Shown here in pieces: positions 7,085 through 49,365 of a stretch of DNA of 64,000 nt. The position numbers and the translations under genes are program-made. This DNA comes from Pseudomonadales bacterium. Its GTDB lineage: Bacteria > Patescibacteriota > Microgenomatia > UBA1400 > PJMF01. Numbering within the stretch: the stretch's first letter is position 1; each line of letters opens with the position of its first letter. Under the pieces are notes generated by a model that worked only from the letters and a program-made list of their open reading frames with translations, had not been told where the DNA came from and searched no databases. The DNA is taken from positions 96,894 through 160,893 of the forward strand of contig JACKFY010000002.1 of assembly GCA_020632235.1 (NCBI GenBank), read 5' to 3'.

Positions 7085-7345
7085 TAAAACCCTTTTACCA
7101 TGCTTTTGCTTGGTGTTTCCCCTTACAAGGGGAATATAAACCCCCCTGTCCCGTGCTCCGCTTGGGTTGCCCGCCCCGACTTCACATTAGGGCTTCCTTA
7201 CGAAAGTAAGAGTCAAACTTAGATTTCTCTCCGCCAGCTGGCGGATCGAACTGACAAGACAGAGTGATAAAGCAGACTCTGAAACACCCGCCTGTATCCC
7301 GACTTTTAGTCGAGGAAGAACTTCGGGCAGGAGTTCAGAGTCAGT
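7085..7345. repeat. mosaic hairpin-rich intergenic repeat, copy A (two modules)
   Basis: aaaacccttttaccatgcttttgcttggtgtttccccttacaaggggaa 7085-7135 is 52/56 identical to 11553-11603; second module taaaccccc..ctgtcccg ... atcccgacttttagtcgagg shares AAAACCC / CCCGAC-loop-GTCGGG parts with copies at 22148 and 49275. Confidence 0.55.
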
Positions 7346-7484
7346 AAAGAGGTGGGGGTCTAAAAAGCAAAAAAGCATTATTATCGCTGGGCAGATCCCA
7401 CGTATAACAATGCTTTTTCTTGAGCAATAACCTAGTAAACTAGGAAATAACTTGTACTTATGAAGTTACCAAGTATTTTTGTTA

Positions 7485-7513
7485 TTGTACAGCCCATCTT
7501 TATGCTCTATAAT
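7485..7513 (+). promoter_or_regulatory. near-consensus sigma70-type promoter (TTGTAC-17-TATAAT) upstream of rho, implying a ~365-nt leader
   Basis: TTGTAC 7485-7490, 17-nt spacer, TATAAT 7508-7513. Confidence 0.4.
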
Positions 7514-7562
7514 AGGTCAATATCTATCAATTTTCTTTAAAAATCTACAATAAGGGTGTTGT

Positions 7563-7621
7563 GTGGAGGTTCGGCAGTAGGGCAGGCAGCCGAGCTTCCA
7601 CCCAGCGCCTTTGTTTTTTTT
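7563..7621 (+). promoter_or_regulatory. 13-bp stem-loop followed by a U8 tract in the rho leader (candidate attenuator/autoregulatory structure)
   Basis: GTGGAGGTTCGGC (7563-7575) pairs with GCCGAGCTTCCAC (7589-7601) incl. 2 G-U pairs; ~11-nt spacer then TTTGTTTTTTTT. Confidence 0.35.
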
Positions 7622-7884
7622 CTTCAGAATATATCTTTTTTGATATGTTGCTTAACATAGTGTTATTTTTTGTAGTGGTATTGACAGAATGGATAAAAGC
7701 AATTATAGTAAAATTTGTTATTCCAACCCTTTCCCTGTAGAGCAAGAGGATTTTGGAGAAATCACATAACTATATTTCATATATCATGTTTGTTAGCCAG
7801 CGTGCGCGTCCTGCGCCATTATTCCCAAAGAAAAACGAGCCTTTGTGCTCAAGTAGGTAGTAAGTATGTTGTAACGAAAAGTAC

Positions 7885-9192
7885 GTGAACAATATGACAG
7901 ACATAACAAAAAAAAGCACAAAAACTCCAGTGACCAAGAAAAATTCTCCTAAACCAAAAAACGAGCCAGTAGTAAAAAAACGAACTGTTCCTCCAGTAAT
8001 TCCTCTCAAACAGGCAAAGTCTGACACTATGGGCGAAAAACCCCCGTCAGGCAATAAACGAGAAACAAAGATTATTGAAGGAGTGCTCGATACATCCCGA
8101 GATGGTCATGGAGTAGTCAGGGTGGGAATGGGGGGTAATGAAGAGTTTGATGCCTACATTGCCACCTCTCATATTCGTCGTTTGGGCTTAAGGGCGGGAG
8201 ATATCATCACCGGGCCGGTGCGTGAACCAAAGGACAACGAGCGATACTGGGGTCTGCTCAAGGTAGAGACCGTAAACGGCTTGTCACCAGCCGAGTTTAC
8301 TAAAGCAAAACGACCAAAGTTCCGCAACCTTACTCCGGTGTACCCTGACGAACAGATCAAGCTTGAGATAGGTCAAGAACCACTCGCGCTGCGTATTATC
8401 GATATGGTGGCACCAATAGGAAAAGGGCAGAGGAGCTTGATTGTTTCCCCTCCAAAAGCAGGAAAAACAACACTCTTAAAAGAGATTGCCACGGGTGTTG
8501 CCCAAAACCACCCAGAGATTCATATTATGGCAGTGTTGGTAGGCGAGCGGCCAGAAGAAGTAACCGACATTCGTCGTCACATTGAGCGTATTACCAAGGG
8601 TAAGGGTGAAGTAGCTGCTAGTAACTTTGACGAGTCGGCACAAAGTCAGTGTCATGTGGCAGAGTTAGCCCTTGAGCGAGCTATGCGTATGGTAGAGATG
8701 GGTGCCGATGTGCTTATATTACTTGACTCAATCACTCGTTTGGCGAGGGCGTACAACCTCGCCATTCCTACGTCTGGTAGGACGCTGTCTGGTGGCTTTG
8801 ACCCACAGGCGTTATTTCCGCCTAAAAAATTCTTTGGGGCAGCACGTAATTTCGAAGTGCCTGGAAGTTTGACCATTGTTGGCACAGCCCTTATTGATAC
8901 GGGTTCGCGCATGGATGAGGTGATTTTTGAAGAGTTTAAGGGTACGGGCAATCAAGAGGTTCATCTTGACAGACGCCTAGCAGAGAGGCGTACGTATCCA
9001 GCACTTGATGTACAACGATCTGGCACCCGCCGAGACGACTTACTTATCGAGCCTATGACGTACCAATCAATCCTCACGCTACATAGAATGCTTGATACAC
9101 TAGATCAAAATGAGCGTACGGCTACACTCATCAACCAAATGCGTCGCACCACAACGAATAAAGAATTTTTAGCTTCTCTCAAGACAGCGTAG
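7885..9192 (+). CDS. rho: transcription termination factor Rho with Lys-rich N-terminal extension
   Basis: Walker A GKGQRSLIVSPPKAGKTTLL, RecA-like core and C-terminal RTYPALDVQRSGTRRDDLL; track start is GTG 7885, ATG at 7894 is an alternative. Confidence 0.9.
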   Translation: MNNMTDITKKSTKTPVTKKNSPKPKNEPVVKKRTVPPVIPLKQAKSDTMGEKPPSGNKRETKIIEGVLDTSRDGHGVVRVGMGGNEEFDAYIATSHIRRLGLRAGDIITGPVREPKDNERYWGLLKVETVNGLSPAEFTKAKRPKFRNLTPVYPDEQIKLEIGQEPLALRIIDMVAPIGKGQRSLIVSPPKAGKTTLLKEIATGVAQNHPEIHIMAVLVGERPEEVTDIRRHIERITKGKGEVAASNFDESAQSQCHVAELALERAMRMVEMGADVLILLDSITRLARAYNLAIPTSGRTLSGGFDPQALFPPKKFFGAARNFEVPGSLTIVGTALIDTGSRMDEVIFEEFKGTGNQEVHLDRRLAERRTYPALDVQRSGTRRDDLLIEPMTYQSILTLHRMLDTLDQNERTATLINQMRRTTTNKEFLASLKTA

Positions 9193-9223
9193 TTGTCCTA
9201 CATTGTGCTAGAATGCAGTCTCA

Positions 9224-10363
9224 ATGAGAACGTGGCAGCGCACTAATCGCCCCCATACTATCTGGACAGACTTGAAGGAATTTTTTGCCTTTTGTAAAAA
9301 GTATGTCTGGACGCGGGGGTATGCTTACTTCTCTCGGTTTGAGGGTGCTAAAAATGTTGTGGTAGACGCTCTCTACAAGCGCAGAGGAAAGTACGCTCGA
9401 CCATTTTTACACTTTGGGGCGGTAGGTCTTACTTTTTTGGTTGTAACCATTGGTCCTTACATACTTTCGAGCAGAGACACCACAGAGCCGTCTCAGCCCA
9501 CCAGAAGCGTGCTTTCGGCAGCCAATGCAAACGAGAGTTTTTACACCCAACAGGCAGAAGAGGTAAAACAGTATAGAGGTGGCGAGATCATCATTCATAC
9601 TGTTGCGGAAAACGAAACACTTTCCCAAATAGCTGCTCGCTACGGGCTTTCTGTAGATACTATTTTGTGGGAAAATAATCTTTCTGAAAAAGATAGTCTC
9701 AAGCCAGGTACTGAGCTGCGCATTTTGCCGGTAGATGGAGTACGTCACAAGGTTTCTCGTGGTGAGACTATTTACTCAATTGGGAAAAAGTATGGACTGG
9801 ATGCAGCCCAGGTGCAGGTTATTGTTGACTATCCGTTTAATGAGTTTCTCAATGATGAAACATTTGAGTTGGCTACAGGTCAGTACGTGGTAGTGCCGGG
9901 GGGAAAACCTCCAGAGAAAACAACGAGTGCTGCTACCACTCGATCTGGGACGACAGTGGCGCGTGCTGCCCAACAAACACCAGACGCAGGGGCAGTGACG
10001 GCTACGGGTAGTTTTGTTTGGCCTGCGTCAGGGCGTATTACGCAGGGATATAGTTTTTACCACAAGGCATTTGATATTGCCAATCAGGGCGGTGGGCCTA
10101 TCTTGGCAGGCGATAGTGGTACCGTTACTGCTGCTGGTTGGGACTCTAGCGGATATGGTAATAGAGTGATCATTGACCATGGCAATGGATACAGCACCCT
10201 GTATGGACATATGCGGGTGCTGCAAGTGAGTGTTGGCCAGACGGTGAGCAGGGGTAGTGTGATAGGCCAGATGGGTAGTACGGGTAGATCAACCGGCACA
10301 CATCTTCATTTTGAGGTGCGACAAGGTGGAATATTGTTGAATCCAGGATCATTTTTGAGGTAG
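9224..10363 (+). CDS. membrane-anchored LysM-LysM-M23 family metallopeptidase
   Basis: N-terminal TM helix, two LysM repeats (TLSQIAARYGLSVDTILWENNL; ETIYSIGKKYGLDAAQ), M23 motifs GYGNRVIIDHGNGYSTLYGHM and GSTGRSTGTHLHFEV. Confidence 0.85.
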   Translation: MRTWQRTNRPHTIWTDLKEFFAFCKKYVWTRGYAYFSRFEGAKNVVVDALYKRRGKYARPFLHFGAVGLTFLVVTIGPYILSSRDTTEPSQPTRSVLSAANANESFYTQQAEEVKQYRGGEIIIHTVAENETLSQIAARYGLSVDTILWENNLSEKDSLKPGTELRILPVDGVRHKVSRGETIYSIGKKYGLDAAQVQVIVDYPFNEFLNDETFELATGQYVVVPGGKPPEKTTSAATTRSGTTVARAAQQTPDAGAVTATGSFVWPASGRITQGYSFYHKAFDIANQGGGPILAGDSGTVTAAGWDSSGYGNRVIIDHGNGYSTLYGHMRVLQVSVGQTVSRGSVIGQMGSTGRSTGTHLHFEVRQGGILLNPGSFLR

Positions 10364-10365
10364 TA

Positions 10366-11547
10366 ATGATAGATCTAGTAACTCTCACACTCAAAGGCGG
10401 TGATGGTGGCAACGGACGCGTTTCTTTTCGAAGAGAAGCGCGCGTGATGAAGGGAGGGCCAAACGGAGGGCGGGGAGGGGACGGAGGTAGTGTTTTAATC
10501 AGAGCCTCCAAGCATCTGGCAACACTCAAGCAGTATGCAGGAAAGACGCATTTTTCAGCAGAGGATGGTCGATTTGGGGGAAGACAAAAGCAAACAGGTA
10601 AAAATGGTGCTTCACTGGTGTTAGAAGTGCCACTGGGCACACAAGTAACCGTTACTGCAGAGAACAGCATCTCGGATTACAGAAGAAGGAAAAAGAAGAC
10701 TGATGGCCGCCTGAAAAGAGGTGACGCGCGTCTTCAGCGCTACTTACTGCCCAGAGAAGGTGCCCCTATTCCCGGCAGAGAGCCAGATGAACTGCAAGAA
10801 CTAACGCCACCACTTGTAGTTGCAGAGCTACTTGAAGACGGACAAGAGCTTCTCATATGCCAGGGAGGGTATGGTGGGCGGGGAAATGACTCGTTCAAAG
10901 GCCCTGAGCGCACAACGCCACTCATTGCTGAGTACGGCTCGTTTGGAGAGGAAAAAGTGGTGCAGCTAGAGCTAAAGCTCTTGGCTGATGTCGGGCTAGT
11001 TGGATATCCCAACGTTGGTAAAAGCACCATTGTGTCGTCTTTGACTGGTGCAAGCACAAAAATTGGCGCCTATCCATTTACTACATTGGAGCCTCATCTG
11101 GGTGTACTTCGTGTTTCTAGCTCGAGTAGTGTTGAGGAAGAGCTGGTGATAGCTGATATTCCTGGGCTGATAGAGGGGGCAAGTGAAGGCAAGGGTTTGG
11201 GTCATGACTTTTTGCGTCACATAGAAAACACCCGCGCGCTGTGGTTTGTGTTGGCGCTTGAAGAAGCAGATGTGTTTGATGAACAGAAAGATGCCTCTTT
11301 TCTCGCCAAGTTGCTCTATGAGCAGTATGCTGCCCTTCTGAGTGAACTTCACTCACACAACCCCGTTGTGTTAGAAAAGCAGCAAGTAGTAACGGTCAAC
11401 AAAGTTGATCTCTACTCTGAGGATGTGCGACAGGCCATCACTCAAGTATTTACACATAAGGGGATAGAGGTGTTGTTGATGAGTGCGGCGACCGGAGAGG
11501 GAGTTTCCCAAGTGAAAGAGCGAGTGTTTGAGGTTGTGTTGGTGTAG
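10366..11547 (+). CDS. obg: GTPase Obg/CgtA (with an insertion in the Gly-rich Obg fold)
   Basis: GGDGGNGRVSFRREA...GGPNGGRGGDGG Obg fold, G1 GYPNVGKST, 3-nt gap after the M23 peptidase. Confidence 0.9.
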   Translation: MIDLVTLTLKGGDGGNGRVSFRREARVMKGGPNGGRGGDGGSVLIRASKHLATLKQYAGKTHFSAEDGRFGGRQKQTGKNGASLVLEVPLGTQVTVTAENSISDYRRRKKKTDGRLKRGDARLQRYLLPREGAPIPGREPDELQELTPPLVVAELLEDGQELLICQGGYGGRGNDSFKGPERTTPLIAEYGSFGEEKVVQLELKLLADVGLVGYPNVGKSTIVSSLTGASTKIGAYPFTTLEPHLGVLRVSSSSSVEEELVIADIPGLIEGASEGKGLGHDFLRHIENTRALWFVLALEEADVFDEQKDASFLAKLLYEQYAALLSELHSHNPVVLEKQQVVTVNKVDLYSEDVRQAITQVFTHKGIEVLLMSAATGEGVSQVKERVFEVVLV

Positions 11548-11548
11548 T

Positions 11549-11606
11549 TAAAACCCTTTTACCACGCTCTTGCTTGGTTTTTCCCCTTACAAGGGGAAGG
11601 CAAAAT
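11549..11606. repeat. mosaic intergenic repeat, copy B (single module), immediately after obg stop
   Basis: aaaacccttttaccacgctcttgcttggtttttccccttacaaggggaagg, near-identical to 7085-7135. Confidence 0.55.
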
Positions 11607-11622
11607 CTTTCGAGATGACCGG

Positions 11623-13776
11623 CTATGTTGCTGGCGCCTCAGGCGACGGCGAGCTGGTGGTTTCTAGATCCTGCGTGGGGTCAGTCTCTTTGTCGCTAGC
11701 ATTTGGAGTTGCTTGCGCATCTATCTCTTCTGTTGTGGCAGGGTCACTGACTGCGTCTTCTGGGTTTTGCAGTGCTTCATTGAGTAAGCTTGGTTGTTCT
11801 ACCGTACTCTCGTCGGCAGCTTGTTCCTGATTTTGCGCTGCTGCCTGCTGTTCTGCCAGCGGCTGTACCTCTCCTAGTTCTTGCTGCACCTGCGCATACT
11901 CTGCGCTCGCAGGGTCAATGAGTGCGAGTGTTCTTTGATAGGCAATGACTGCATTTTGGTAGTCTCCGAGGTTGGCAAGTGAGATTGCAAGGTTATACTG
12001 TGCCTGTGGGTAGTCTGGCTTGAGGTCTGTGGCCTGCGCAAAGAGTTGCGCTGCTTGTGCATACTCTTCTGCGTTAAAGAAGATCGTCGCTAGGTTGTTG
12101 CGCAGAGCAGGGTTGGTGGGGTCAGTTTCTATAGCGGTAATGTAGCTTTGGACAGCAAATTGGTCTGCTCCCTCAATACTGCCGATGAGGTTGGCATATA
12201 TTTGTGCCAAAACTGTCCAATTTTGGGTATCAGATGGGTCCAATATTGTGGCAGACCGAGCTTCTCTGACGGCTTGCGTTATGAGCGTGTTGACCTGTTC
12301 CTGCTCTGCTTGGGTTATATCTTTGTTGCTTGATAGGGCAGCAGCAACCAGGATGTTGCTGGCAGCATACTCGCGCCTCATGTAGTCTAGGTACGGGTTT
12401 AGCTCTACTGCTTTTTGTTGATTGGTGTAGAGACCTACCCCGTCATCATTTTGTGCTGCTTTGGCAGACTCATTCATGTAAAAATGAGCGGCGTAAGCCC
12501 GCCCTGTTTGATAGATGAGCCAAGCCACCAGAAGTAATGGAATAACTCCTGCTGATAGAGAGAGTGCGCGCCTGAGAGTACTTTTAGACGACTGTGTTGT
12601 TTTTGTAGCATGTTGATCGCCATCAAGTAGTTTTACAGAGAATGGATGGAGTTGTAGTCGCCTAAACCTATCTTTTTCGGCTGCCGTATACAACATAATC
12701 ATCAAGGCTAATATGACCAGCAGAACAATATTACTTGGTAGAAACACCTGTGAGATAAACACGGTAGCTATGAGTAGCCCAAGAGCTTTCGAGGAGCTGC
12801 CGCTGTCACCCAGCTGCATAAGAAATGATCCGGCAAATAAAAGGTATGTGGTAACCCCCAAAACCCCCATGCTGACAATGAGTGTGAGCGGGGTGTTTGC
12901 AGCAAAGCCAAACGGTATGTTCCAGGCTGGACTTGTGTTTACAGTGACAGGTTTGTACTGCGTATACGCATTTGTGTACAAGCTACTACCGACACCAATT
13001 ACAGCAGTGCGAGGAGATCTGAGTGAGTCAAGCGCTATTGACCAACTGGTGCTAAAACTGGGGAGTATAACCTCAGCTGGTTTTCCAGGCAGAAGAGACC
13101 AAATATGCACACCTGCTCCTACTAACAAAATGGGCAGAAGCACGAGATGAAGTGTGCTTATTTTTTTTCTAAAGAAAGAAAGACTTATGACGCCAAGTAT
13201 TGAGAGCATAATAACTTCTAGAGATATCAGGGCAGATCCAGTCAGACTAAACACCAGGCTGGATGGGAGAGAGAGACCAAATAGAGCATTGAGTGCTTGA
13301 CTGGGTCCAAATCCAAGTAATTGCAGTGTGGCCAAGACACTTAGAATAGAAGAAGTAATAGCAAGGCAAGTGATAAGTGCTTCTGAAAGGTTTTTTTTAA
13401 TTAAGGATGGGCCGAGTACTCCGATGGCTGCCAGGCCGATGTAGACACCGCCCGCGCCAAGAATATTTTCTTGGGGATACGTAGTGGTAAAGAATGTACT
13501 TGCCGCTGCTGCTAGACCAAATAAAACAAGGGGAAGTGTAAAAGGCCCAGTAATGATCTCTACTGCTTTTATTTTGATTGAACGCAGTGTGTAGAGTGTT
13601 ACTGTGGCGAGTATAAAAAAGAAAAATGTATACAGCTTGGTAGTAGAAACAAAATTATCGGTGATGGGCAGCACAAACAAAATGATGGAGCACATCATGG
13701 CAAAAGAAAAAATAGTCATGAGTGATTGGAGGGCAGAGGCGTGTTTCATAGGCATCATACAGTGTAGTACATACAA
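11623..13776 (-). CDS. O-antigen ligase/polymerase-like (Wzy_C-type) polytopic membrane protein with C-terminal TPR repeats and acidic tail
   Basis: ~10 predicted TM helices over the first ~400 aa; C-terminal TPR-like repeats (AQIYANLIGSIEGADQFAVQSYITAIETDP..; AEEYAQAAQLFAQATDLKPDYPQAQYNLAISLANLGDYQNAVIAYQRTLALIDP); start uncertain (several Met near N-terminus). Confidence 0.55.
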   Translation of the reverse strand: MYVLHCMMPMKHASALQSLMTIFSFAMMCSIILFVLPITDNFVSTTKLYTFFFFILATVTLYTLRSIKIKAVEIITGPFTLPLVLFGLAAAASTFFTTTYPQENILGAGGVYIGLAAIGVLGPSLIKKNLSEALITCLAITSSILSVLATLQLLGFGPSQALNALFGLSLPSSLVFSLTGSALISLEVIMLSILGVISLSFFRKKISTLHLVLLPILLVGAGVHIWSLLPGKPAEVILPSFSTSWSIALDSLRSPRTAVIGVGSSLYTNAYTQYKPVTVNTSPAWNIPFGFAANTPLTLIVSMGVLGVTTYLLFAGSFLMQLGDSGSSSKALGLLIATVFISQVFLPSNIVLLVILALMIMLYTAAEKDRFRRLQLHPFSVKLLDGDQHATKTTQSSKSTLRRALSLSAGVIPLLLVAWLIYQTGRAYAAHFYMNESAKAAQNDDGVGLYTNQQKAVELNPYLDYMRREYAASNILVAAALSSNKDITQAEQEQVNTLITQAVREARSATILDPSDTQNWTVLAQIYANLIGSIEGADQFAVQSYITAIETDPTNPALRNNLATIFFNAEEYAQAAQLFAQATDLKPDYPQAQYNLAISLANLGDYQNAVIAYQRTLALIDPASAEYAQVQQELGEVQPLAEQQAAAQNQEQAADESTVEQPSLLNEALQNPEDAVSDPATTEEIDAQATPNASDKETDPTQDLETTSSPSPEAPAT

Positions 13777-13872
13777 AACGATGCTGTAAAGCCAGAGATT
13801 GTTGCCACTTGCTGATATTCTCGTACTTGCGATAGCAAAGCAGCTTTACTATGATGCAGAGAGGAAAAACTG

Positions 13873-14304
13873 ATGAAAAAAACTGGCTTTACCCTTATTG
13901 AAATACTTATTGTTGTGTCTATTATTGGTATCTTGGCGGCTCTTATTGTAGGAAACTTTTTGTCAGCCAGAGAAAGAGCAGCCGATGGAGCCATGAAAGG
14001 AGAGTTGGGTCAGCTGAAAACAGCTCTTCAGTTGTACTACAATGATAATCAGTCTTTTCCTTCCAGTCTTCCAGCAGAAGATCAGCAGTTTTCTGACAAT
14101 GGAACTACCTATATGGGTTCTATACCGAGAGTTGATTACTACGAGCAGCTAGACTCTGGTGATGATTTTCTTTCGTGTTCGGGGCTTGAACGCGCCGCTG
14201 ATGATCAAAAGGTGACACTAGAGAGATGTGATGTTGATGAATCTGTTGTTGAAACTTTGGCTTCTGAGGGAAGAGAAAATCCCTACTGTGTCTGTGCGGA
14301 TTAG
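13873..14304 (+). CDS. type IV pilin / pseudopilin (prepilin N-terminal cleavage-methylation domain)
   Basis: MKKTGFTLIEILIVVSIIGILAALIV class III signal with G|FTLIE cleavage/methylation site; Cys-rich C-terminus; divergent from the ligase-like gene (96-bp shared upstream region). Confidence 0.8.
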   Translation: MKKTGFTLIEILIVVSIIGILAALIVGNFLSARERAADGAMKGELGQLKTALQLYYNDNQSFPSSLPAEDQQFSDNGTTYMGSIPRVDYYEQLDSGDDFLSCSGLERAADDQKVTLERCDVDESVVETLASEGRENPYCVCAD

Positions 14305-17300
14305 TTGATAATCCACCAGTTAAAGGTGACGTCGTTTGATGATGGGTTATCAAAGCCAACGGTAAGTAGCGCCTCATTTTCTAGAGTTTCTGGATTATCT
14401 GTTTGTTGATTTTTGATATACAACACCTGATTGCCTGTACTCCCCACAGGCGTGATGTAGACGAGTGAGTCTTGCGTGAGGCTGCTAGCAATGATGGAGA
14501 GCTCTGTTTGATTACTCTTGATCGTTGCTTTGCCGGAAGAAGCGCTGGTTGCTAGGGGTTCTCCCTCTGGCTGCTGTGTGAAGTCTTGGGCGTTGAGCCC
14601 CAGCTTGCTAAATTGAGCCTCGCCGTCTGCATCAATGCTGGCAACAGCAGTCTGTGTTTCGTCAACAACTTCAAAGCTAGAATCTAGCACCTCGCCAGAG
14701 CTCGTAGCAACGCCGGCCACCTGTACGCGCAGTGGGTTTTCGTACGAGGTGGGTTGGAGTAAGTCTCCCAAGAGCGACCCTTCAACTGCAACGTCACCAG
14801 CAACTGTTAGGTTGCCATCAATTTTTGCCAGACCAGAATCATCAAGAGTGAGGAGTCCTGCCAGTAGCTCAATTGTACCCATTCCCTCTGGCTGAATGTG
14901 CAGGGTGTCTTGACTGTCTGCGGCCTGGTAGCTGAGTACTCCATCTGCCAGTGTGGTGCGCTCGCCAATAGCAATGCTACTTCCCACCCCCAGCATATCT
15001 GAAACATACGCAATACCATTTACATTAAAGTAGGTTGTGACGTACACAGCATCTGGCACAATGACGGTTTCAGTGGCACTGAGGTTTAAGTCCTCAAGAG
15101 AAAGATCTAATTCTGAGGTGCTCACTGGTGTGTAGCCCAGACCTTCTGCAACGCTGGCTGCCGCAGTGGCCGGGGCAGGGTTTTCCGGCTGGATACCACG
15201 AATGATGTCAATCAGGCTTTGCTCATTAAGTGATGAGGCAACTTTGTCATCAAGCCCATCGATGTTTTGTGCATATAATGTACCCGAGACAGTAGCGTTC
15301 ATAAACTCTGCTGTTTGGGCGTTTATCTCTCTCATTTGAGCAATTTCTGTTTCAAGGTAGGAAAGGCGGGCAGACTCTGCGGTGATACTTTCACTTGCTA
15401 AAGTACCCGATATGGTAGCTTCTTGTGCCAGTAATGTGCTCAAATTGGTTTCTTCTTGTACCACTAGGTTGTTGGTGGTCACTGTTTCTGCAGCTACCTT
15501 TCCGCTAAAGGTAGCGTTGCCTTGATTATCTATTTGAGCTACTACACTACCGTTACTATTTTTCACGGCTAGATTATTGATTACAGCATCTTCCGGCAAA
15601 CTTTGGCGTTGTTGTTCAGTATTGATAATCCTTTTAATCATGGACTCGATAGACTCGCCTTTGATAGAAAGAGCAGAGGTGTTCAAACTTTGCACCTCTG
15701 CCGTTTTGGTTACAACCAGCTCTTTAGTGTGTACGAGTCCGGCAGTCATATTCGCAATAAAGGCTTTAGAAGCACCAATGACTGCAGAGAGAGGAGAGCT
15801 GACACCTGCTGGCGTGGCTGTGTACGTGCCGTTTTGTTTTGCAATAATGACTGTGCCGTCTGGTGCGAGTGAGATCTTTTCTAGCTTAGTCAGTTTTGAC
15901 TTGTTGGACATAATAAGTGATTGTTGTTCTTGCACGGCATTCACCAGTACTGCAGTGAGTTGTTTGTACTTCACACCTTCTATTTGGCCATTGGCGTATG
16001 TTGCTAGTAGTGGATCAATTTGTTCTACCTCTTCTGCAACGAAACCAAGATCATGCATGCCATCTGCCTTCCAGTCAAATACAACTGGTCTCAGTTGCAT
16101 TACTTCATTCAGACCCAGGTCAAGGCTTTCAATGTTTTCTTTGTACCTTTGGCTGGAAGAACAGGTGCTTAAGGCATTGAGAGTATTTCTACATACGTCT
16201 GTAGCACCATTAAAAGATAATACACCAAGAAACAGGCCGCCTGTCAATGCGCCATTGCCATTAACATGAAGTGCTTGTGTTGGTGTTACGCCAATTCCTA
16301 ATTGGCCAGAACTATTGATTTCTAGAGCAGTGTTGCTACCTGGAGTTGTGCCGGTGCCAATAAAGAACGAGTCGTCGTTGTCGTTTCCCGCATCATCTTG
16401 CACACCCATCCAAAAGTCAGTATCTGTTGAGGTAGAAGTATCAAATATAATAGAAGAATCTGCTTTATTGAGTGTTAAATCACCACTAAGAGTTCCCCCA
16501 CTTAATGCTAAATATCTGCCGTCGAGCTGAGTTCTCGTGAGTAAGTCACCACCTGCATTATTATCAAGATAGCCTTCTGTACCCAGGTCTGAGTAGGCAG
16601 AAAATGAGTTGTCACTTACAGAGCCACCACTTATAGTGAGGTCATTTGCCACATATGCATCGGCGATTGCACTGCCTTGCCAGGTACCAGTACCAATAGT
16701 CCCCAGTGTCGTAATGCTTGTTTGTCCTGCATAGGTAGAAGCTATTCTCAAACCACTCGCACTCTTTGAAAGCGTAGAGCCATCTAGTTCAAGAGAGAAG
16801 ACAGTGCCAGACTCTTCTATGCCAAGACCATCTGCAGAGTAGGTGGTATTAGTATCATTACTGCCCGTAGCACTAATGGTAATAGTGTCTGTTGTAGCAT
16901 TGGTGGTGATAGTCACATTAGAGCCTGCTGCAAGAGTAAGAGTGTCATTGTTTTGATCAGATACGACGTTTGATTGTCCTGAGACTGCTATGTTTTTAAA
17001 GATGTTTTGTTGTGAACCTCTATCACTGTTGGTAACAGTAAAAGTAGTACCTTCACCAGCACTACCTGATACTGATATACCCGTACCTGCTGCAACTGAC
17101 CCAGCATAGTTGCCAGTGGTGTCAGTACCAAGAGCTACTGCATCAGGTTGGATAACAACACTGCCTAGTCCTGTTCCTGCTACATCACCTGCAATATCAA
17201 TAGCAGCTTCTAGTGTGCTTTCTGTAGTGGCATCAATACTATCAAGACCATTGAGGGTACCTGTTCCTGCAAGGTTGATGGTAGTAACAGTGTCTAGTAC

Positions 17301-21959: not shown

Positions 21960-22216
21960 GACGAAAATGGAGCGTTTGAGAGGTGTTTAGTCTGGACCCC
22001 TCACCATTCTCTGGTGAGGGTTTCCCGCCTGTCACCCACCCTGTCACTTCGACTAGCCCTATCTGTCATGTCGACCGTGAGTGGAGACATCTGCTACGAC
22101 TGTCCGTCAGGTGACGGATTAGCGGGCAGGTCCCCTTATGAAGAGGAATGTAAACCCATCTGTCCCGACTTAAGTCGGGACGTCTTCCCTTACAAGGGAA
22201 GCGCTAAATACCGCAC
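21960..22216. repeat. mosaic intergenic repeat, copy C (multi-module); the 120-aa track ORF 21942..22304 lies inside it and is probably not coding
   Basis: contains cccgcctgtcacccaccctgtcacttcgac (cf. 35177-35204 and 7287-7296), gtaaacccatctgtcccgacttaagtcgggac and cttcccttacaagggaag (cf. copies A, B, E). Confidence 0.55.
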
Positions 22217-35159: not shown

Positions 35160-35290
35160 CCGCTCGCACTTCTGCCTTGTCACCCAACCTGTCATCTCGA
35201 CCGCAAGTGGAGAGATCTTTGTGAGATTTCTTCCCCCCCCCACTTTGTTCCAGTGGATATGACAACGTAAGCTTTCTGTAAGGTACTGCG
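35160..35290. repeat. mosaic intergenic repeat, copy D (partial)
   Basis: gccttgtcacccaacctgtcatctcgaccgcaagtggagagatct aligns with 22027-22090 of copy C. Confidence 0.4.
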
Positions 35291-40090: not shown

Positions 40091-40108
40091 AGTAACACTA
40101 GGAACACT

Positions 40109-40582: not shown

Positions 40583-40590
40583 CGCTTGGC

Positions 40591-41016: not shown

Positions 41017-41018
41017 GT

Positions 41019-41261
41019 TTATAAATCTGAGTAATCTATGTAGTCTCGAATATTATCGATATCAATATTTGGGTTTTTTTTATGATATTTGTTTAAGGCA
41101 CCACCCAACTCAAGGAATCTACTCTTAGTTGGCTTTAACACCAATGAGTTATCTTTAACCGTTGCTTCAAAAAGAGTGGGTGCATCAATCCCCATTGATT
41201 TTCTAATCTGCTCGGGAATATAGACTTGCCAAGATCGAGTCATGTTTATTGTTGTTTGCAT
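41019..41261 (-). CDS. vapB: AbrB/MazE/SpoVT-type antitoxin (VapB-like)
   Basis: start placed at MQTTINMTRSWQVYIPEQIRKSMGIDAP (swapped-hairpin beta-barrel pattern); track ORF extends to 41327 through the tRNA remnant. Confidence 0.6.
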   Translation of the reverse strand: MQTTINMTRSWQVYIPEQIRKSMGIDAPTLFEATVKDNSLVLKPTKSRFLELGGALNKYHKKNPNIDIDNIRDYIDYSDL

Positions 41262-41348
41262 ACCAATACTGATTATACAACAATAATGATATAAACGTGC
41301 CCCCGCTAGAAATCCTTGCCTGCGCAAGCAGGGAACCTAGATGTAACG

Positions 41349-41420
41349 TGCCCCCGCTAGGAATCGAACCTAGATTTAAGGTTTAGGAAACCTCCGTTCT
41401 ATCCATTGAACTACGGGAGC
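41349..41420 (-). tRNA. tRNA-Arg (anticodon CCT)
   Basis: manual fold of reverse complement: acceptor GCTCCCG/CGGGGGC, D-arm GTTC-AATGGAT-GAAC, anticodon stem GAGGT/ACCTT loop TTCCTAA (CCT), T-arm CTAGG-TTCGATT-CCTAG, discriminator A; no encoded CCA. Confidence 0.85.
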
Positions 41421-42530: not shown

Positions 42531-42533
42531 TGG

Positions 42534-43874: not shown

Positions 43875-43927
43875 TGTTGTATAGTATAGCAAGATGTGAG
43901 AAGTATGAGCAAGCAAGTGGTATTCCT

Positions 43928-44950
43928 ATGAGTGTGTTTAAAAGGACAATCGGTGTTGACATGGGTACGGCTCGCACTCGCCTCTGGAGTAGTGATGTGC
44001 CAGAAAGCATACTAGATGAGGCAAGTTGTATAGCAGTCGACACTCGATCAGAGACTGTTGTGGCAGTAGGTGATGAAGCAGCCCAGATGCAGGGGAGGGT
44101 AGGCGCACACCTTACTACCGTGTGGCCCGTGCGGCAGGGAGAGGTGGTTGATCCAGCTGCTGCAAAAGCACTTCTGCGTCATCTTGTATCGAGTCGATCG
44201 AGTAGAGTAACCTCTGTGTTTCCTGCAAGCGTTATGATCGCGACCCCCAGTATGGCTACTGCTGTTGGGAGAGAATTTTTTTCTTTTGCTGCAGGTGCTG
44301 TTGGCACCCGAGAGGTGGTAAGTATTGCCCAACCCTTGGCTGCGGGGATTGGTGCGGGAGTACCCATTGCTGACGCATCTGGAGCGTTTGTATTGCAGTT
44401 GGGTGCAGGGGTAGTAGAAGCAGCCGCGGTATCACTGGGGAGTGTTGTTGCACACCGCTCGGGTGTTTTTGGTGGAAACTGGTTGTTGGAACGCCTGCAG
44501 CGAGATGTAGAAAAAGCATATGGGATACGAGTCAGCCTGGATGATGTAAGAATATTGTTACATACTTGCACCACTTTTATACCAAAAAAGGAACACATAT
44601 TCCCGTTGTTTGGTCAAGATCGGCATACAGGTGAGCCAAAACAAGTTGAAGTATCTTCAAGTATATTTACTACTACGCTTGCGTCATGGCTTGATTTGTG
44701 CGCAAAACAACTGCAAGAATTGTTAATGGCGGTGCCCACGCAGCTTGTTTCAGATAGCATGAATAAGGGTGTTTTGCTATCTGGCGGTTTGGCACACATC
44801 CCTGGGGTGAGCGAGGCTCTTGCTACTGCAGCTGGAGTGCCAATGAGTGTGGTTGATGAGCCAGGCACAGCGGTTATTCATGGCGTGCAGACAGCCGTTA
44901 CTCATCTGGATGAGTTCAAAAAAAGCGTTATGTATCAAAGTGATGAGTAG
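43928..44950 (+). CDS. actin-like ATPase, MreB/Mbl family (divergent)
   Basis: phosphate-1 IGVDMGTARTRL, C-terminal LLSGGLAHIPGVSEAL (cf. MreB LTGGGALLRGL); start at MSVFKRTIGVDMG preferred over track start 43874. Confidence 0.6.
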   Translation: MSVFKRTIGVDMGTARTRLWSSDVPESILDEASCIAVDTRSETVVAVGDEAAQMQGRVGAHLTTVWPVRQGEVVDPAAAKALLRHLVSSRSSRVTSVFPASVMIATPSMATAVGREFFSFAAGAVGTREVVSIAQPLAAGIGAGVPIADASGAFVLQLGAGVVEAAAVSLGSVVAHRSGVFGGNWLLERLQRDVEKAYGIRVSLDDVRILLHTCTTFIPKKEHIFPLFGQDRHTGEPKQVEVSSSIFTTTLASWLDLCAKQLQELLMAVPTQLVSDSMNKGVLLSGGLAHIPGVSEALATAAGVPMSVVDEPGTAVIHGVQTAVTHLDEFKKSVMYQSDE

Positions 44951-44952
44951 TA

Positions 44953-46410
44953 CTACGCGTGTGTCTTCAGCTTGGTTACTTCTTGCTTAAACTGGTTTCC
45001 CCTATCGGCGTAGTTTGTAAATGTGCCAAAGCTAGGGCTGCCTGGACTGAGCAACACAATGTTTCCTGGCGAGGCGTGCTGCTGTGCTTCTCGTGCTGCC
45101 TGCTGCATTGTTGCTACAAAGACAATCGAGATAGTATGTGTTGGGTTGATCTTTGTTAGTTCTTTTTGTATGTCCTCACCTGTTGGGCGAAACAAGACGA
45201 GGTGCGCCACCGAGTTTGCGAGTAATTCTTGGGCAAGTGCGTGAAATGACAGCCCTCGGCTGTAGCCGCCTGCAATGAGCACAACTGGAGTGTCTGGAAA
45301 TGACTTGAGTGCAGCAATGGTTGCGTCTGGTGTGGTAGAGAGTGAGTCGTTGTAGTACTGTACTTCTTTGATTGTGTCTACATACTCGAGTCGGTGGGCA
45401 AGAGGTTGAAAGTGCTCGATGCTCGTCTGCACTCTTTGCTGAGGAATACTGTACATCTTGGCAATGGCGAGAGCGGGGAGAATGTTGTAGCAGTTGTGGT
45501 CTCCTGGTAGCTGCACCCTTGATCTCTCAATAACTGTTTTTCCCTTCAGCTTGATTGTACTTGGGGCAATACGGTACTCACTAGTGTCAACTTTTACACC
45601 AGTAGAGAGGTGGGCTATATCTGTTGATTCGCTAAACGCTGCATTATAGATGACTGTGTCGCGTGTTGTTTGAAAACGAGTAATAGATGCTTTTGCCTGT
45701 TTGTATTCTTCATACGAACTGTAGTAGTCAAGGTGTTCGGGCGTGACGTTTTGCACAACTGCGATGTGGGGACTTACGGTGAGTGGGGAGAGCTGGTGGC
45801 TGGAGAGCTCTAGCACAAAGATGGTTTTTTTTGTCTCTTGGCTACTTGTTTTGTCAATTGGTTGTTTTTGATGTGTGTCTGTTGCTATTCGCCATTTTTC
45901 CCAGACATCCAGTGGGGGAACACCGATGTTGCCACCCAGAAAAACGTGGGTTGTTCCTAGAAAGTCGGAAAGTACGGTGTAGATAAGGCTTGCAGTGGTG
46001 CTCTTTCCCTTGGTTCCTGTCACACCAATGATGGTGGAAGTATCACAGGCACACTTGAAAAATAGGTCGGTATTACTTGTTTTTTTTGCATGAGGAAACG
46101 CACGCTCTAGCGCTTGTATAACTGGCGCATTTGGTGGAATACCGGGAGAGAGGGAGAGTGTGACATGCTCTTTTGTTGGTGCGCGGCTAGGTATCTCTTT
46201 TGCTGAGAGTACTGCGTGATCGCCTTGCTTGAGTATTGTTTGCCACCGGGCGCTCAACTCTGCCATAGGCTTATCGTCAACAAAGAGAATGGCTGTTGTA
46301 GGGAAGTGTTGCGTTAAGAATTGATAGGTAGAAAATCCCTCCCGACCCAACCCCACAATAACGACAGTGCCACTACAAAGCTCAATAACTGACTGGGGAA
46401 ACACACTCAT
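44953..46410 (-). CDS. murD: UDP-N-acetylmuramoyl-L-alanine--D-glutamate ligase (MurD-type Mur ligase)
   Basis: N-terminal Rossmann VVIVGLGREGFSTYQFL, Mur ligase P-loop IIGVTGTKGKSTTASLI; start at MSVFPQSV (track ORF to 46506 would overlap the upstream gene). Confidence 0.75.
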   Translation of the reverse strand: MSVFPQSVIELCSGTVVIVGLGREGFSTYQFLTQHFPTTAILFVDDKPMAELSARWQTILKQGDHAVLSAKEIPSRAPTKEHVTLSLSPGIPPNAPVIQALERAFPHAKKTSNTDLFFKCACDTSTIIGVTGTKGKSTTASLIYTVLSDFLGTTHVFLGGNIGVPPLDVWEKWRIATDTHQKQPIDKTSSQETKKTIFVLELSSHQLSPLTVSPHIAVVQNVTPEHLDYYSSYEEYKQAKASITRFQTTRDTVIYNAAFSESTDIAHLSTGVKVDTSEYRIAPSTIKLKGKTVIERSRVQLPGDHNCYNILPALAIAKMYSIPQQRVQTSIEHFQPLAHRLEYVDTIKEVQYYNDSLSTTPDATIAALKSFPDTPVVLIAGGYSRGLSFHALAQELLANSVAHLVLFRPTGEDIQKELTKINPTHTISIVFVATMQQAAREAQQHASPGNIVLLSPGSPSFGTFTNYADRGNQFKQEVTKLKTHA

Positions 46411-47903
46411 ATACCAAGACTTTCTCTTGCGCTTGGTATATCTACAGCCAGCTGGTTTTGCAAGTTTTCTGCTAGATTTATAGGCACTGCGTGCTCTGTG
46501 TTCCAACCAGTAATAAGTGCTTTTGCTCTTTCTGGCAGGTTTTTTTCGTGCAGGAGTACTCTCTGTTGCACTTTTTGAAGTACTACAGGCAGGTTTTTTT
46601 TATTTTCTTGATAGACTCTGACAGCAAGCCAGAACGAAATAATAGACTCTTCGTACAGACCCACGCACTCAAGTGGTTTGTTTTTCCCATATCCTGTCAA
46701 GTCAACTGCAGTAGTAATGAGTTTTTTATTTTCAAATAGGTTGCTACCAAAGTAGTTCTCGATGTCACTTTGTTCTAAAAACGGAAAGAGAATAATAAAG
46801 GCAAAGAGGCATTTGGGGCAGTCTTGACACCAGGTATTTGTTTTTCGACCACGGTTGCAACTACGAAAGACGGGGTGAAAGCGCTCTTGATGAGCAAATA
46901 ACATACCAATTTGTAGCTCGTAGAGCGGTCGGAGGAGCGAAAAATAGTAGGGGGGAATGGTGTTTTTACTGGAGAGTGTGCGATGTGCGTACTCTTGAAA
47001 TGCAGTTTCAAAGTGAAATGATTTTGAGTACTGGTGGTTTATTTCTTGGCCAAACAGCGTCGTATTACCTTCGTTAGCACTTCTTTCATTGGAAAGGGCG
47101 ATAGCATCAAAGTCTTTGAGTCTTGCCAAGAGTGTGGTCAGGAACGCAACACTCGCAGAAAATGGCACGTGACCATTACGGTAGCCTTCTTGATTGAGCC
47201 GCAGTACTGTTGGATCTAGTATCCTATCTATTACGAAATGTTTTGATAGATTGCTTAATGCTATGATATCTTTTGTTGCTTGGGTGGGGTTGATAGCAAC
47301 ACTCGCAAGTGATTGCTGTGCTTGGTCGGCGTACAGATTTTGTAGTTGGGTCAGGGTGACGACTGAGTCTTTTCCGCCTCCAATAGGAATGAGTGCCGTG
47401 TGGGGTTTTGGTGGCACCCCGCCCGCACCAAGATCTACAGTAGCGTCCGAGTGGAGCGAGAGAGGCATAGCATCTGTATTACTTACAATCTGTACAAAGT
47501 CTTTCTCGTTGGGGTCAATCTGGTTGACGAAAAAGAACTCACCCATGCCATGGAGCAACAGGGAGTGCCACCAAGCCACCTGCCAGTCATCTAAATAGGC
47601 GACGCGTACATCAATGACCGGAGAAACGGTTGATTTCCAGTAGCTGAGGAGCTCTACCAGGCCTAGAGAGGCGAGAAGACTATGCAGTTCACTCGGGGGA
47701 ATGGCTACGACATCGTGCTGGGTGACATTGTGGAGTGTGAGCGTGTGGGTGAAGGAGTGATCTGGTGGGGTGCTGTAGCGAAAGGTGATGTGAAGCGCGT
47801 TATCGGTGACGCGCCACTCTATAGCATCAAAAGAAATGGTGGGGTACTGTGATCGAAGTACTGCAGTTGTTTTCATGTAGCATTCATTATAGCGTATGTA
47901 CAA
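46407..47903 (-). CDS. PP-loop ATP pyrophosphatase superfamily protein with CxxCxxC cluster, function unknown
   Basis: LIPIGGGKDSVVTL (SGGKDS-type PP-loop) at residue ~175; CQDCPKC near residue 360; 4-nt overlap with murD start. Confidence 0.45.
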   Translation of the reverse strand: MYIRYNECYMKTTAVLRSQYPTISFDAIEWRVTDNALHITFRYSTPPDHSFTHTLTLHNVTQHDVVAIPPSELHSLLASLGLVELLSYWKSTVSPVIDVRVAYLDDWQVAWWHSLLLHGMGEFFFVNQIDPNEKDFVQIVSNTDAMPLSLHSDATVDLGAGGVPPKPHTALIPIGGGKDSVVTLTQLQNLYADQAQQSLASVAINPTQATKDIIALSNLSKHFVIDRILDPTVLRLNQEGYRNGHVPFSASVAFLTTLLARLKDFDAIALSNERSANEGNTTLFGQEINHQYSKSFHFETAFQEYAHRTLSSKNTIPPYYFSLLRPLYELQIGMLFAHQERFHPVFRSCNRGRKTNTWCQDCPKCLFAFIILFPFLEQSDIENYFGSNLFENKKLITTAVDLTGYGKNKPLECVGLYEESIISFWLAVRVYQENKKNLPVVLQKVQQRVLLHEKNLPERAKALITGWNTEHAVPINLAENLQNQLAVDIPSARESLGI

Positions 47904-48376
47904 AAGAGCTTCATCAAAAAGTTATAAGATATCTTTGCATCGTCTGAACATTGGTGACTGATCACTTGTTTTTTTGCACCCTTCTCTTTAAAGGCGAAGT
48001 ATTTTTTTTGGCAGAGTTATGCTCTTTTTTTGTGAAAAAAAGCACGTTTTTACTCTAGAAAAAATATACTCATTTTGTGCAGTGTGGCGGTGTTTAAAGT
48101 AGATGGAGTAACAGTGGCTTTCAGCTCGTTGCAGCAGGGCATGCATCTGCTATTCATTTCGTACGTTTGGTTTTTGTTTACCGAAGTGGAAAGATGCTGA
48201 AGTGTACTATTTTTAATAGAGTATCCCCCTTTAAAGGGAGTGCAAGCCCAGAGCTTGTTTGTCTTGCATGTTCTGATATAAAAACCAGCTTGCGAGAATG
48301 GATGAGAGTGCCTAAAATGGGCAGAAACGTTTGGATGCTGTTTGGACAGCGAATATACGTATACAGGAGGCACTGA

Positions 48377-49273
48377 GTGAAAAAAAATAATGATACAAAA
48401 GTGAAAATTTTTGACTTATCTTTTTTTGGCAGTAAAAAGCATCAACTGCTAGATTCAATAAACCTACAGAAACCCCCAAGACAGGCTAAAAATAGTCCTA
48501 TAACAGTGATTTTTACACCAAATCCGGAGCACATCGTGCAGTCCAAGAGCGACGTAGAGTTTTACCATCTCTTGCTGCAAGCAGACATTCGCATACCCGA
48601 TGGAATAGGCCTTATAGTTTCATCTCGGTTGCTATTTTTGCTTGGAAAGCTCCCAAAGCCACTTGCAGAGCGCATCACGGGTGTAGACCTGAGCACATCA
48701 TTACTTCATTTAGCCTGGCAGGCAGATACAACTGCTTTGCTTGTTGGTGGAAAAGACTATCAAACAGGGAAAAAATATACTGTCCGAATACATCTTGGTG
48801 ATATCTCATATACTGTGCGCGATGTAGAGCAACTGAGTGGTTCTCGCACCCAAGCTCCAGGTAAGAAATCAACAGATGGCAGTAAAAACGGCTTGGTTTA
48901 TCATGAATTATGGTGGAGTGGTGGTTTTGCAGATGTTTCTAGACCTACGCAAACAGAGGTTGCTCGGCTACACGCTGCGATCCAAACTCTTCGCCCTGCA
49001 GTTGTGTTTGTGGCGTTTGGCGCGCCATACCAAGAGCGTTGGGTGATGCAAGAGAAGGAGTTTTTGCGCCAAAACGGTGTTCGGGTAGTGTTGGTGGTGG
49101 GTGGGGCGTTTGATATGTTGCTTGGCAAATTACCTCGCGCGCCACGATGGATGCGCGCGGTAGGGCTCGAGTGGCTGTTTCGTTTGGTGCGTGAGCCGTG
49201 GCGCTGGCGACGCCAGCGCGCACTCTTGGTGTATGTGTGGCTCACGCTCAAAGAAGCGTTTCGTCGTGGGTGA
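48377..49273 (+). CDS. WecB/TagA/CpsF-family glycosyltransferase
   Basis: N-terminal VKIFDLSFFGSKKHQLLDSI and RIPDGIGLIVSSRLL match the family's conserved N-terminal and DG-containing blocks. Confidence 0.7.
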   Translation: MKKNNDTKVKIFDLSFFGSKKHQLLDSINLQKPPRQAKNSPITVIFTPNPEHIVQSKSDVEFYHLLLQADIRIPDGIGLIVSSRLLFLLGKLPKPLAERITGVDLSTSLLHLAWQADTTALLVGGKDYQTGKKYTVRIHLGDISYTVRDVEQLSGSRTQAPGKKSTDGSKNGLVYHELWWSGGFADVSRPTQTEVARLHAAIQTLRPAVVFVAFGAPYQERWVMQEKEFLRQNGVRVVLVVGGAFDMLLGKLPRAPRWMRAVGLEWLFRLVREPWRWRRQRALLVYVWLTLKEAFRRG

Positions 49274-49274
49274 T

Positions 49275-49365
49275 ACAAAACCCCTCTATCCCGACTAAAG
49301 TCGGGATGTCCCTGCCCCCCCGATGTTTCATCGGGGGGTCTCCTTACAAAAGGGAGAGGGGGCTG
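49275..49365. repeat. mosaic intergenic repeat, copy E
   Basis: acaaaacccctctatcccgactaaagtcgggat + inserted hairpin cccccccgatgtttcatcgggggg + tctccttacaaaagggagagg; same AAAACCC / CCCGAC-loop-GTCGGG / CCTTACAAGGG parts as copies A-C. Confidence 0.5.

Follow-up and report, generated by a model that had tools for sequence, protein, structure and literature searches.

Among the described repeats of bacterial genomes, repetitive extragenic palindromic (REP) elements and the bacterial interspersed mosaic elements (BIMEs) are short imperfect palindromes (hairpins of ~20-40 nt) in which a conserved unpaired motif immediately precedes the hairpin on its 5′ side; they are strictly extragenic, often follow directly after stop codons, and are sometimes clustered as mosaics with other motifs. 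The BOX elements of Streptococcus pneumoniae (boxA-boxB-boxC) are built from modules. The genomes of the Candidate Phyla Radiation (CPR), which are ~1 Mb in size and densely packed, are commonly regarded as repeat-poor. Here, we analyze a family of hairpin-rich repeats, the core of which we call the U unit, in a 64,000-nt stretch of a CPR genome (GenBank assembly GCA_020632235.1, contig JACKFY010000002.1, positions 96,894 to 160,893; hereafter the window). Five sites in this window, A (7085-7345), B (11549-11606), C (21960-22216), D (35160-35290) and E (49275-49365), had been singled out by a sequence-only reading as copies of one family, and the sampled DNA of this genome comes to 68.6 kb in all (the window plus 4.6 kb beyond it, loci L021 and L022). 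On our best reading, the sites appear to form a small family of mosaic repeats, extragenic, dispersed and specific to this lineage, that is REP/BIME-, BOX-, ERIC- or Correia-like in kind, but apparently without sequence relation to these. Our literature search found no report linking REP elements, their RAYT transposases or miniature inverted-repeat transposable elements (MITEs) with CPR, and the suggestion of the sequence-only reading that such repeats are uncharacterized in these organisms agrees with this outcome.

Pairwise local alignments of the sites, scored against 300 dinucleotide shuffles, show that the five intergenic sites carry homologous hairpin modules, well beyond chance. The highest score is that of A-B (7085-7134 vs 11549-11598; 47/50 identical, z=30), followed by C-E (22152-22184 vs 49278-49310; 29/33, z=12.8), A-C (7118-7153 vs 22131-22167; 32/37, z=12.3) and C-D (22057-22092 vs 35183-35218; 31/36, z=11), and for none of these four pairs did any of the 300 shuffles reach the observed score. 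Lower scores were obtained for B-C (11584-11606 vs 22187-22209, z=6.7) and A-E (7168-7212 vs 49313-49358, z=3.3), with identities uncounted in both cases, and no significant similarity was found in these pairwise comparisons for A-D, B-D, B-E or D-E. Self-BLAST and a repeat finder returned the same pairs. The sharing of modules between five intergenic sites, as first proposed, is therefore borne out, and the low-complexity coincidence that had been considered alongside it does not account for the four top scores.

Searches with profiles and single motifs extend this picture. In leave-one-out tests with nhmmer, a model of U4 found U5 at E=1e-3, a model of U1, U2 and U3 found U4 at E=1e-4 and U5 at E=0.05, and the best non-self match was always a family member. 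The CCCGAC-N4-GTCGGG hairpin (CCCGACNNNNGTCGGG) occurs twice in the window vs 0.02 expected occurrences, and CTGTCANNTCGAC has three exact matches and one with a single mismatch vs 0.85 expected. The 10-mer CCTTACAAGG is by itself no commoner than chance predicts (3 occurrences vs 4 expected when 1 mismatch is allowed), and counts as evidence for the family only because its position within the unit is always the same. Nine of the 51 perfect GC-rich hairpins of the window lie inside sites A, B, C and E, and none in D.

The U units number five, all on the + strand and each 50-90 nt long. Their design comprises an unpaired TAAA(A)CCC leader, a spacer of 3-6 nt, a first hairpin (7-8 bp with a loop of 3-4 nt), an optional GC-rich hairpin, which is present as an extra in U3 and U5, and a terminal hairpin with a 7-bp stem and CCUUAC in and around its loop. 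Hairpin 1 spans 17-20 nt, with a mismatch in U1-U3, and hairpin 2 spans 18-19 nt; leader, hairpin 1 and hairpin 2 follow one another in this sequence in 5/5 units. U3, which nhmmer recovers at E=8.7e-7, bridges both unit subtypes: its leader is like that of U4 (AAACCC..CTGTCCCG), its hairpin 1 is like that of U1 (CC.TGC...GCTTGG), its 3′ half aligns with U5 at 49313-49358, and its terminal hairpin has been remodeled (CTTAC-GAAA-GTAAG, 7197-7210). In U5, all hairpins are enclosed by a closing stem, CCCCTCT/AGAGGGG. The succession of a terminal hairpin and AAT(A/G)TAAACCC recurs in the A-C alignment, and units therefore tend to sit head to tail. Decayed remnants of hairpin 2 are found upstream of U1 (half a hairpin, 7067-7084) and of U4 (22131-22146, CCCCTTATGAAGAGG).

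These coordinates refine the sequence-only reading in several respects. Its repeat between 7085 and 11553 is real, but is 50 nt long with 47/50 identities and starts at 11549, rather than being a 56-nt unit with 52/56 identities, and its CCCGAC hairpin at 7283 exists, but lies at 7297-7315 and is imperfect (TCCCGAC/GTCGAGG). The palindrome CCTTACAAGG, assigned to four sites, is exact at 7121, 11585 and 22188, and the sequence at 49342 is a variant (CCTTACAAAAGG). A start in AAACCC and an end in the CCTTAC palindrome, attributed to every copy, hold for the U units; site D has neither and is linked to the family only via site C. Finally, the sites are not five single copies, as A and C are composites, and A holds two tandem units (7085-7134 and 7135-7215).

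Comparison of the stems points to the hairpins themselves as the conserved feature. As MAFFT/RNAalifold put the hairpins out of register, the pairs were listed explicitly by script in structural register. In hairpin 1, pairing is kept through three double changes between U1/U2 (AT CG CG AT xx GC CG) and U4/U5 (TA CG CG CG GC AT CG), and in hairpin 2, there are two double (both-sided) changes in U4 and two in U5. The hairpin shared by sites C and D changes from ATCTC/GAGAT to ATGTC/GACAT, a compensatory swap of G-C for C-G, and all three differences between U1 and U2 fall at unpaired positions. Because the stems differ between copies via compensatory changes, the comparison shows that hairpin formation in the units is maintained by selection. 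We consider it firmly established that the sites form a small family of homologous, mosaic extragenic repeats with selected hairpins.

Table 1. Units, modules and isolated hairpins of the repeat family, with positions in the window.
Feature	Position	Strand	Composition and remarks
U1	7085..7134	+	leader TAAAACCC; hairpin 1 ACCATGC/GCTTGGT 7097-7114; hairpin 2 TTCCCCT-TACA-AGGGGAA 7117-7134; 47/50 to U2
U3, tandem to U1	7135..7215	+	leader TATAAACCCCCC; hairpin 1 CCCGTGC/GCTTGGG 7150-7166; decayed middle hairpin
U2	11549..11598	+	first base 1 nt past obg stop codon; 47/50 to U1
U4	22148..22201	+	leader GTAAACCC; GTCCCGAC-TTAA-GTCGGGAC; CTTCCCT-TACA-AGGGAAG; A-C 32/37, C-E 29/33
U5	49276..49361	+	three hairpins: leader CAAAACCCC; ATCCCGAC-TAAA-GTCGGGAT; CCCCCCGATG-TTT-CATCGGGGGG; TCTCCTT-ACAAA-AGGGAGA
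Module V, site A	7275..7342	+	outer stem GACTCTGAAAC/GTTCAGAGTC; frame CCCGCCTG...CGGGCAGG 7287-7331; inner imperfect CCCGAC hairpin 7297-7315
Module V, site C	22024..22130	+	frame CCCGCCTG...CGGGCAGG around W repeats and hairpin 22100-22122
Module W, site C, two copies	22041 and 22063-22092	+	CTGTCACTTCGAC at 22041, CTGTCATGTCGAC... at 22063-22092; inside V frame
Module W, site D	35175..35218	+	GCCTTGTCACCCAACCTGTCATCTCGACCGCAAGTGGAGAGATCT; 31/36 to 22057-22092
Hairpin, site A	7225..7250	+	TCCGCC-AGCT-GGCGGA core; resembles minus-strand 56167-56196 in ABC exporter gene, 27/30
Hairpin, site C	21997..22021	+	CCCCTCACCA-TTCTC-TGGTGAGGG; opens GC-rich part of site C
Hairpin, site D	35240..35256	+	CCACT-TTGTTCC-AGTGG
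Isolated CCCGAC...GTCGGG hairpin	63520..63538	+	in place of D-loop GGTT, tRNA-Thr 5′ fragment

Besides the U units, the sites hold two further modules, V and W (Table 1). Module W, which consists of CTGTCAYYTCGAC and a hairpin, occurs twice in site C and once in site D (35189-35218), where there is no U unit. The order of modules is U-U-...-V in site A and V(W,W)-U in site C, and as it differs between sites, the term "mosaic" is apt. The isolated CCCGAC hairpin stands in a copy of the tRNA-Thr 5′ part (GCTATCTTAGCTCAGTT...AGAGC, 63499-63545) between tRNA-Tyr and tRNA-Thr, in which the D-loop GGTT is swapped for the hairpin CCCCGACGCACAGTCGGG; this copy is a fragment, since no T-arm follows. 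We also note a match of ~34/38 nt between site A (7214-7258) and the minus strand at 56160-56203, where the ABC exporter gene encodes a conserved VRFLSANRQIE linker, and a 12-mer beside this match also matches site D. The match is either due to chance or to a captured gene fragment. An insertion into the exporter gene, of the kind made by Rickettsia palindromic elements (RPEs), was rejected, as the stretch is the native VRFLSANRQIE motif and aligns with ABCB1.

All five U units are intergenic. U2 lies within the 75-nt gap between obg and a convergent TPR gene, and U5 begins 3 nt past the wecG stop codon and fills the 96-nt gap to a convergent BldC/MerR-type gene. U4 takes up the far end of a 770-nt spacer and finishes 16 nt short of the stop codon of a Big_13 surface gene encoded on the minus strand, and site D lies between a 924-aa surface gene, in the 3′ untranslated region of the latter, and comEA downstream. 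The location at gene ends that had been proposed for the copies is thus correct for sites B, C, D and E. Site A had been assigned to the rho leader; this is not the case, since the likely rho promoter (7681-7709, 11/12 match, with the promoter of relatives at the same relative position) lies >330 nt downstream of site A, with a terminator-like hairpin and a separate, probable small RNA gene in between. Seven other convergent gene pairs of the window are separated by gaps of only -4 to 8 nt. As these pairs nearly abut, the elements look like additions to minimal spacers. Abutting or overlapping convergent pairs, for example at 40583-40590, 42531-42533, 44951-44952, 54249/54250 and 61770-61773, leave no room for terminators, and gaps this small raise the question of how such convergent transcripts end in this organism.

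The two blocks between site A and the rho promoter are ~90-95% conserved in a relative with an Obg protein 54% identical to the one encoded here. The first (7363-7420) is a long hairpin with runs of A and T on its flanks (AAAAAGCATTATTATCGCTGGGCAGATCCCACGTATAACAATGCTTTTT) and is ~95% identical in this relative (locus L018); because its loop has a 2-nt indel that no reading frame would survive, we take it to be non-coding and conserved, possibly as a bidirectional terminator or as a binding site. The second (7486-7625) has a promoter-like TGTACA-16-TATAAT followed by a long hairpin of ~95 nt with an invariant apical loop (AGUAGGGCAGGCA) and a T-run, and several of its changes relative to L018 are compensatory or G.U-to-A.U. 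Judging by these features, a gene for a small RNA probably lies here, ahead of rho on the + strand, and its hairpin RNA has no Rfam match. Next to site C, the AT-rich half of the 770-nt spacer holds three exact + strand copies of TTTTTACYYAGTAT (21460, 21530 and 21755), which, with 2 mismatches allowed, gives 8 matches vs 2.2 expected and may be a promoter-like or binding motif.

The source organism is a member of Candidatus Woesebacteria (CPR/Patescibacteria), represented by a metagenome-assembled genome. Identical proteins, Obg among them, are listed under Candidatus Woesebacteria in GCA_020429115.1 and under "Pseudomonadales bacterium" on a 245-kb NCBI contig, and the second of these names is probably a mistake in taxonomy. 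Window positions 4203-17284 are matched at 99.97% identity by a 13-kb contig of GCA_020429115.1, and other assemblies of the same organism, in comparisons limited to stretches away from sites C, D and E, share 99.9-100% identity with the window in the overlapping parts. The next closest Obg among 5.8 billion proteins is only 54% identical, and there are thus no close relatives with which to compare the sites. In the syntenic rho-M23-obg/TPR loci of these closest relatives, there are no homologous units and no comparable repeat family, and the obg|TPR gap holds unrelated sequence within the same gene order. The contig of the relative at L018 opens (1-30) with a tandem hexamer, (AGGGAT)n, possibly an artefact of the assembly end or else a genuine simple repeat.

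With the unit alignment as query, nhmmer detected only the five U units in the window, and no unit in either the further 4.6 kb of this genome or 28.5 kb from the nearest relatives. With a descriptor that required AAACCC and, 0-7 nt further on, a hairpin of 6 bp or more, the + strand gave 8 matches (the five units and three inside genes) vs ~1.5 in simulated sequences, and the minus strand 3 matches vs ~2.3. Scanning genomes (596 Gb) for AAACCC-N18-40-TYCCCTTACAAGGGRA returned 15 single matches in unrelated phyla vs ~6 expected, some of them inside open reading frames (ORFs) and none from CPR; scans of metagenome collections returned 0 and 24 single matches, and scans of viral sequences (IMG/VR) 0 and 6, the latter probably due to chance. 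At loci L005, L008, L010 and L026/L032/L047, all from unrelated phyla, the match is intergenic and has the order AAACCC, short spacer, hairpin, short spacer and TCCCCTTACAAGGGGA, with stems that extend past the pattern, and Rfam, run on loci L002-L016 only, gave no family at the matched positions. We read these intergenic matches as convergent two-hairpin terminators, and the numbers of matches are near chance. Because relatives' syntenic loci are without copies and the collection scans gave only single matches at chance level, the U/V/W family is, as far as such comparisons reach, specific to this lineage. Its hexamers are not enriched outside the sites, and a DNA uptake sequence was accordingly rejected.

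As to what the units do, we assign a probability of roughly 50% to the reading that they are transcribed with their flanking genes, act as 3′-end stem-loop clusters and spread by module duplication. The units would then be transcribed as the 3′ ends of flanking genes, the stem-loop clusters would stop or protect these transcripts and insulate neighbouring genes, and new copies would arise as whole modules were duplicated and dispersed. The structured RNA motifs or terminators that the sequence-only reading had offered as an alternative would, in this case, be part of the functional reading that we favour. The predicted fold of U5 is a closed multi-branch structure of -49.5 kcal/mol (z=-5.0 for the + strand, z=-3.5 for the minus strand), and in the minus sense its closing stem of 7 bp runs straight into UUUU. 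The canonical rplL terminator at 50168 has a 5′ arm identical to the first 10 nt of U5 (AAAACCCCTC). UUUU follows the closing stems of U1, U2 and U5 on the minus strand, and UUUUU follows hairpin 1 of U2, but the stem of the latter is weak. Those G.U pairs that are unambiguous for strand (U3 hairpin 1 and U5 hairpin 2) occur only in the + sense, and together with the slightly better fold z-scores hint weakly at a + strand RNA; in each of the V frames and in the 7297-7315 hairpin, a T.G is coupled with a C.A (a wobble in the minus sense), which is uninformative in this regard.

Several observations weigh against this functional reading. There is no gene end upstream of site A that it could serve, and a consensus terminator scan flags no unit on either strand. 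The strand pointers are split, in that the GGGUUUU tails favour the minus strand and the G.U pairs and z-scores the + strand. Moreover, the 68.6 kb hold only five U units, few copies on which to base the word "family" or a REP-like abundance.

The likeliest competing explanation takes the conserved AAACCC motif 3-6 nt 5′ of an imperfect palindrome, with its T.T or C.T mismatch in U1-U3, as the GTAG/cleavage motif of a non-autonomous single-strand DNA element, moved in trans by an HUH/Y1 transposase encoded elsewhere (REP/RAYT-like, or akin to the hairpin ends of IS200/IS605). The unit boundaries are sharp and without target duplication, as in that transposon family, and one hairpin module lies within the tRNA 5′ fragment, at the position of the D-loop. 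The cumulative GC skew climbs through the entire window (GC ~45%), so that the + strand is the G-rich strand throughout, and with this monotonic skew all five units are on the lagging-strand template, which IS608-type transposition prefers. Against this, no Y1_Tnp or any other transposase is found among the window ORFs, only four loci are independent, the orientation bias has p ~0.06-0.12, and the copies are diverged (~50-90% identical) and thus not recent; we hold this explanation to be unlikely. A broader form, in which the hairpin modules of a CPR bacterium are mobile as single-stranded DNA, are copied in trans by an HUH-type or CPR-specific enzyme and land in terminator loops, intergenic gaps and even RNA genes (the tRNA D-loop fragment), appears to us still more doubtful. 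If true, Patescibacteria would have their first REP/RAYT-like system, at work in a streamlined genome of ~1 Mb.

Pfam scans of the ~43 window ORFs gave no transposase (including RAYT/Y1), reverse transcriptase, integron-type integrase, Cas or Nop-domain protein; the neighbouring 491-aa protein (5434-6909) matches no family. Elsewhere in the window, a protein of 1980 aa (14301-20243) has a SAM-like phage-integrase domain at its N-terminus together with a Peptidase_S74 domain (tail-fibre chaperone), a coupling ATPase of the TrwB/TraG type is encoded nearby (3243-5414), and pilins and comEA/comEC are also present.

Conserved loops and leaders with covarying stems would also be expected of cis-acting RNA motifs or small RNAs, with the loop (UUACAA/UACA) and the AAACCC leader bound by a specific protein or RNA, and with A and C as non-coding RNA genes of ~250-330 nt. 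The folds of sites A and C are significantly stable (z=-3.2 and z=-4.0, respectively, vs shuffles), AT-rich promoter-like stretches precede both, and the terminator-like hairpin after site A (7363-7420) is conserved in a distant relative. However, the syntenic loci of relatives show no conservation of the sites, although the neighbouring small RNA is conserved there, and the order of modules varies by site, which is unusual for a single functional RNA. Rfam, searched over the whole window and in 1-kb slices at the gathering threshold and at E<=10, gave only chance-level overlaps with the sites (all E>=0.39, far below gathering scores), and the known Rfam family that might have explained the sites was thus absent down to E<=10. 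We rate this possibility as rather improbable.

That the similarities are mere coincidence among ordinary GC-rich terminator hairpins, or decayed coding remnants, is largely refuted by the four site pairs with z>=11, whose scores 0/300 shuffles reach, and by the succession of leader, hairpin 1 and hairpin 2 that is common to 5/5 units; we consider it very improbable. It draws on the chance-level frequency of CCTTACAAGG with 1 mismatch, on AAAACCC at the head of ordinary terminators in this genome, on the resemblance of the exact-pattern matches in unrelated phyla to two-hairpin terminators, and on the 30-38 nt of site A that resemble the ABC exporter gene, although that stretch is a normal conserved protein motif and not an insertion. 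A pseudogene remnant was rejected, as the only tblastx matches are those from site to site, with no similarity to proteins over any longer stretch. Guide-RNA arrays like those of TIGR-Tas, an RNA-guided system that occurs in CPR and in one type has sequence-variable tandem stem-loops that escape repeat finders (PMC12045711), can be dismissed almost entirely, since those arrays have large loops with two 8-12 nt spacers flanked by box C/D motifs and an accompanying Tas (Nop-domain) protein (PMC12045711), whereas the loops here, at 3-5 nt, have no space for such spacers, at most two units stand in tandem, and no Nop-domain or nuclease protein adjoins any site.

A further hairpin-dense spacer between convergent genes (3014-3242; 229 nt, -69 kcal/mol) has three GC-rich hairpins, one of which starts with GCCCCGAC and one of which is a + strand terminator (AGGGCAGTCATATGCCCT, then a T-run); it has no detectable homology to the U/V/W family.

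Turning to known systems, some can be set aside. The MITE likeness suggested by the sequence-only reading does not stand, as the ends TAAAACCC... and ...AAGGGGAA are not mutually inverted, and there is no target-site duplication at the sharp 50-nt boundaries (U2 is flanked by GT / GG, and the U5 flanks show no duplication); TA flanks U1 on both sides only owing to its tandem neighbour. Integron attC sites and CRISPR were rejected in the absence of RYYYAAC...GTTRRRY core sites, regular spacing and intI or cas genes. RPEs and other mobile hairpins resemble the family in placing hairpin modules in new contexts, as with the CCCGAC hairpin that replaces the D-loop of the tRNA fragment, but no in-frame insertion into a protein gene is demonstrated here, the sole candidate, in the ABC exporter, being a native motif. 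Rho-independent terminators, with the rplL terminator (50168-50225) as example, share the A-tract and C-rich 5′ arm (AAAACCCC...) and the location in gaps at gene ends, and the minus-strand closing stem of U5 followed by UUUU is terminator-like as well; most units, however, are without GGGG and a U-tract right after the stem, and the copies are homologous, not merely similar in shape.

The closest parallels are BOX and REP/BIME. Like BOX, the family has modules in varying number and order, is intergenic and non-coding, is predicted to form stable RNA folds, and is found in one lineage. By description only, the two differ in their modules and sizes, and BOX has a fixed A...C polarity with repeated B, whereas the order of U, V and W varies. 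In the case of REP/BIME, the sequence-only reading was right as to a mosaic, hairpin-rich and intergenic family, and the imperfect palindromes with a motif just 5′, the position directly after stop codons, the typical REP location at gene 3′ ends (here sites B, C, D and E) and the stable 3′-end RNA stem-loops (here predicted) are all points of likeness. There is no sequence similarity, however; the conserved motif here is (T)AAACCC, 3-6 nt upstream of the palindrome, and there is no GTAG. The alternating orientation is absent, in that the U units all have the same orientation, with the tandem U1-U3 direct and no inverted pairs as in BIMEs and REPINs; RAYT (Y1/HUH) is missing among the ~43 window ORFs, and five units were counted in the 68.6 kb sampled, where REP/BIME copies number tens to hundreds per whole genome. 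The value of the comparison is limited by the single lineage, the few copies and a function that we infer. Nevertheless, a dispersed family of selected hairpins suggests that even CPR genomes maintain, or tolerate, REP-like elements. The units offer a handle on the ending and stabilization of transcripts where terminators are poorly understood, and could be used as strain markers and as candidate 3′-end signals in the annotation of Woesebacteria. As such, the family is a further case of the long-known extragenic palindromic repeats of bacteria, noteworthy mainly for its streamlined CPR host.

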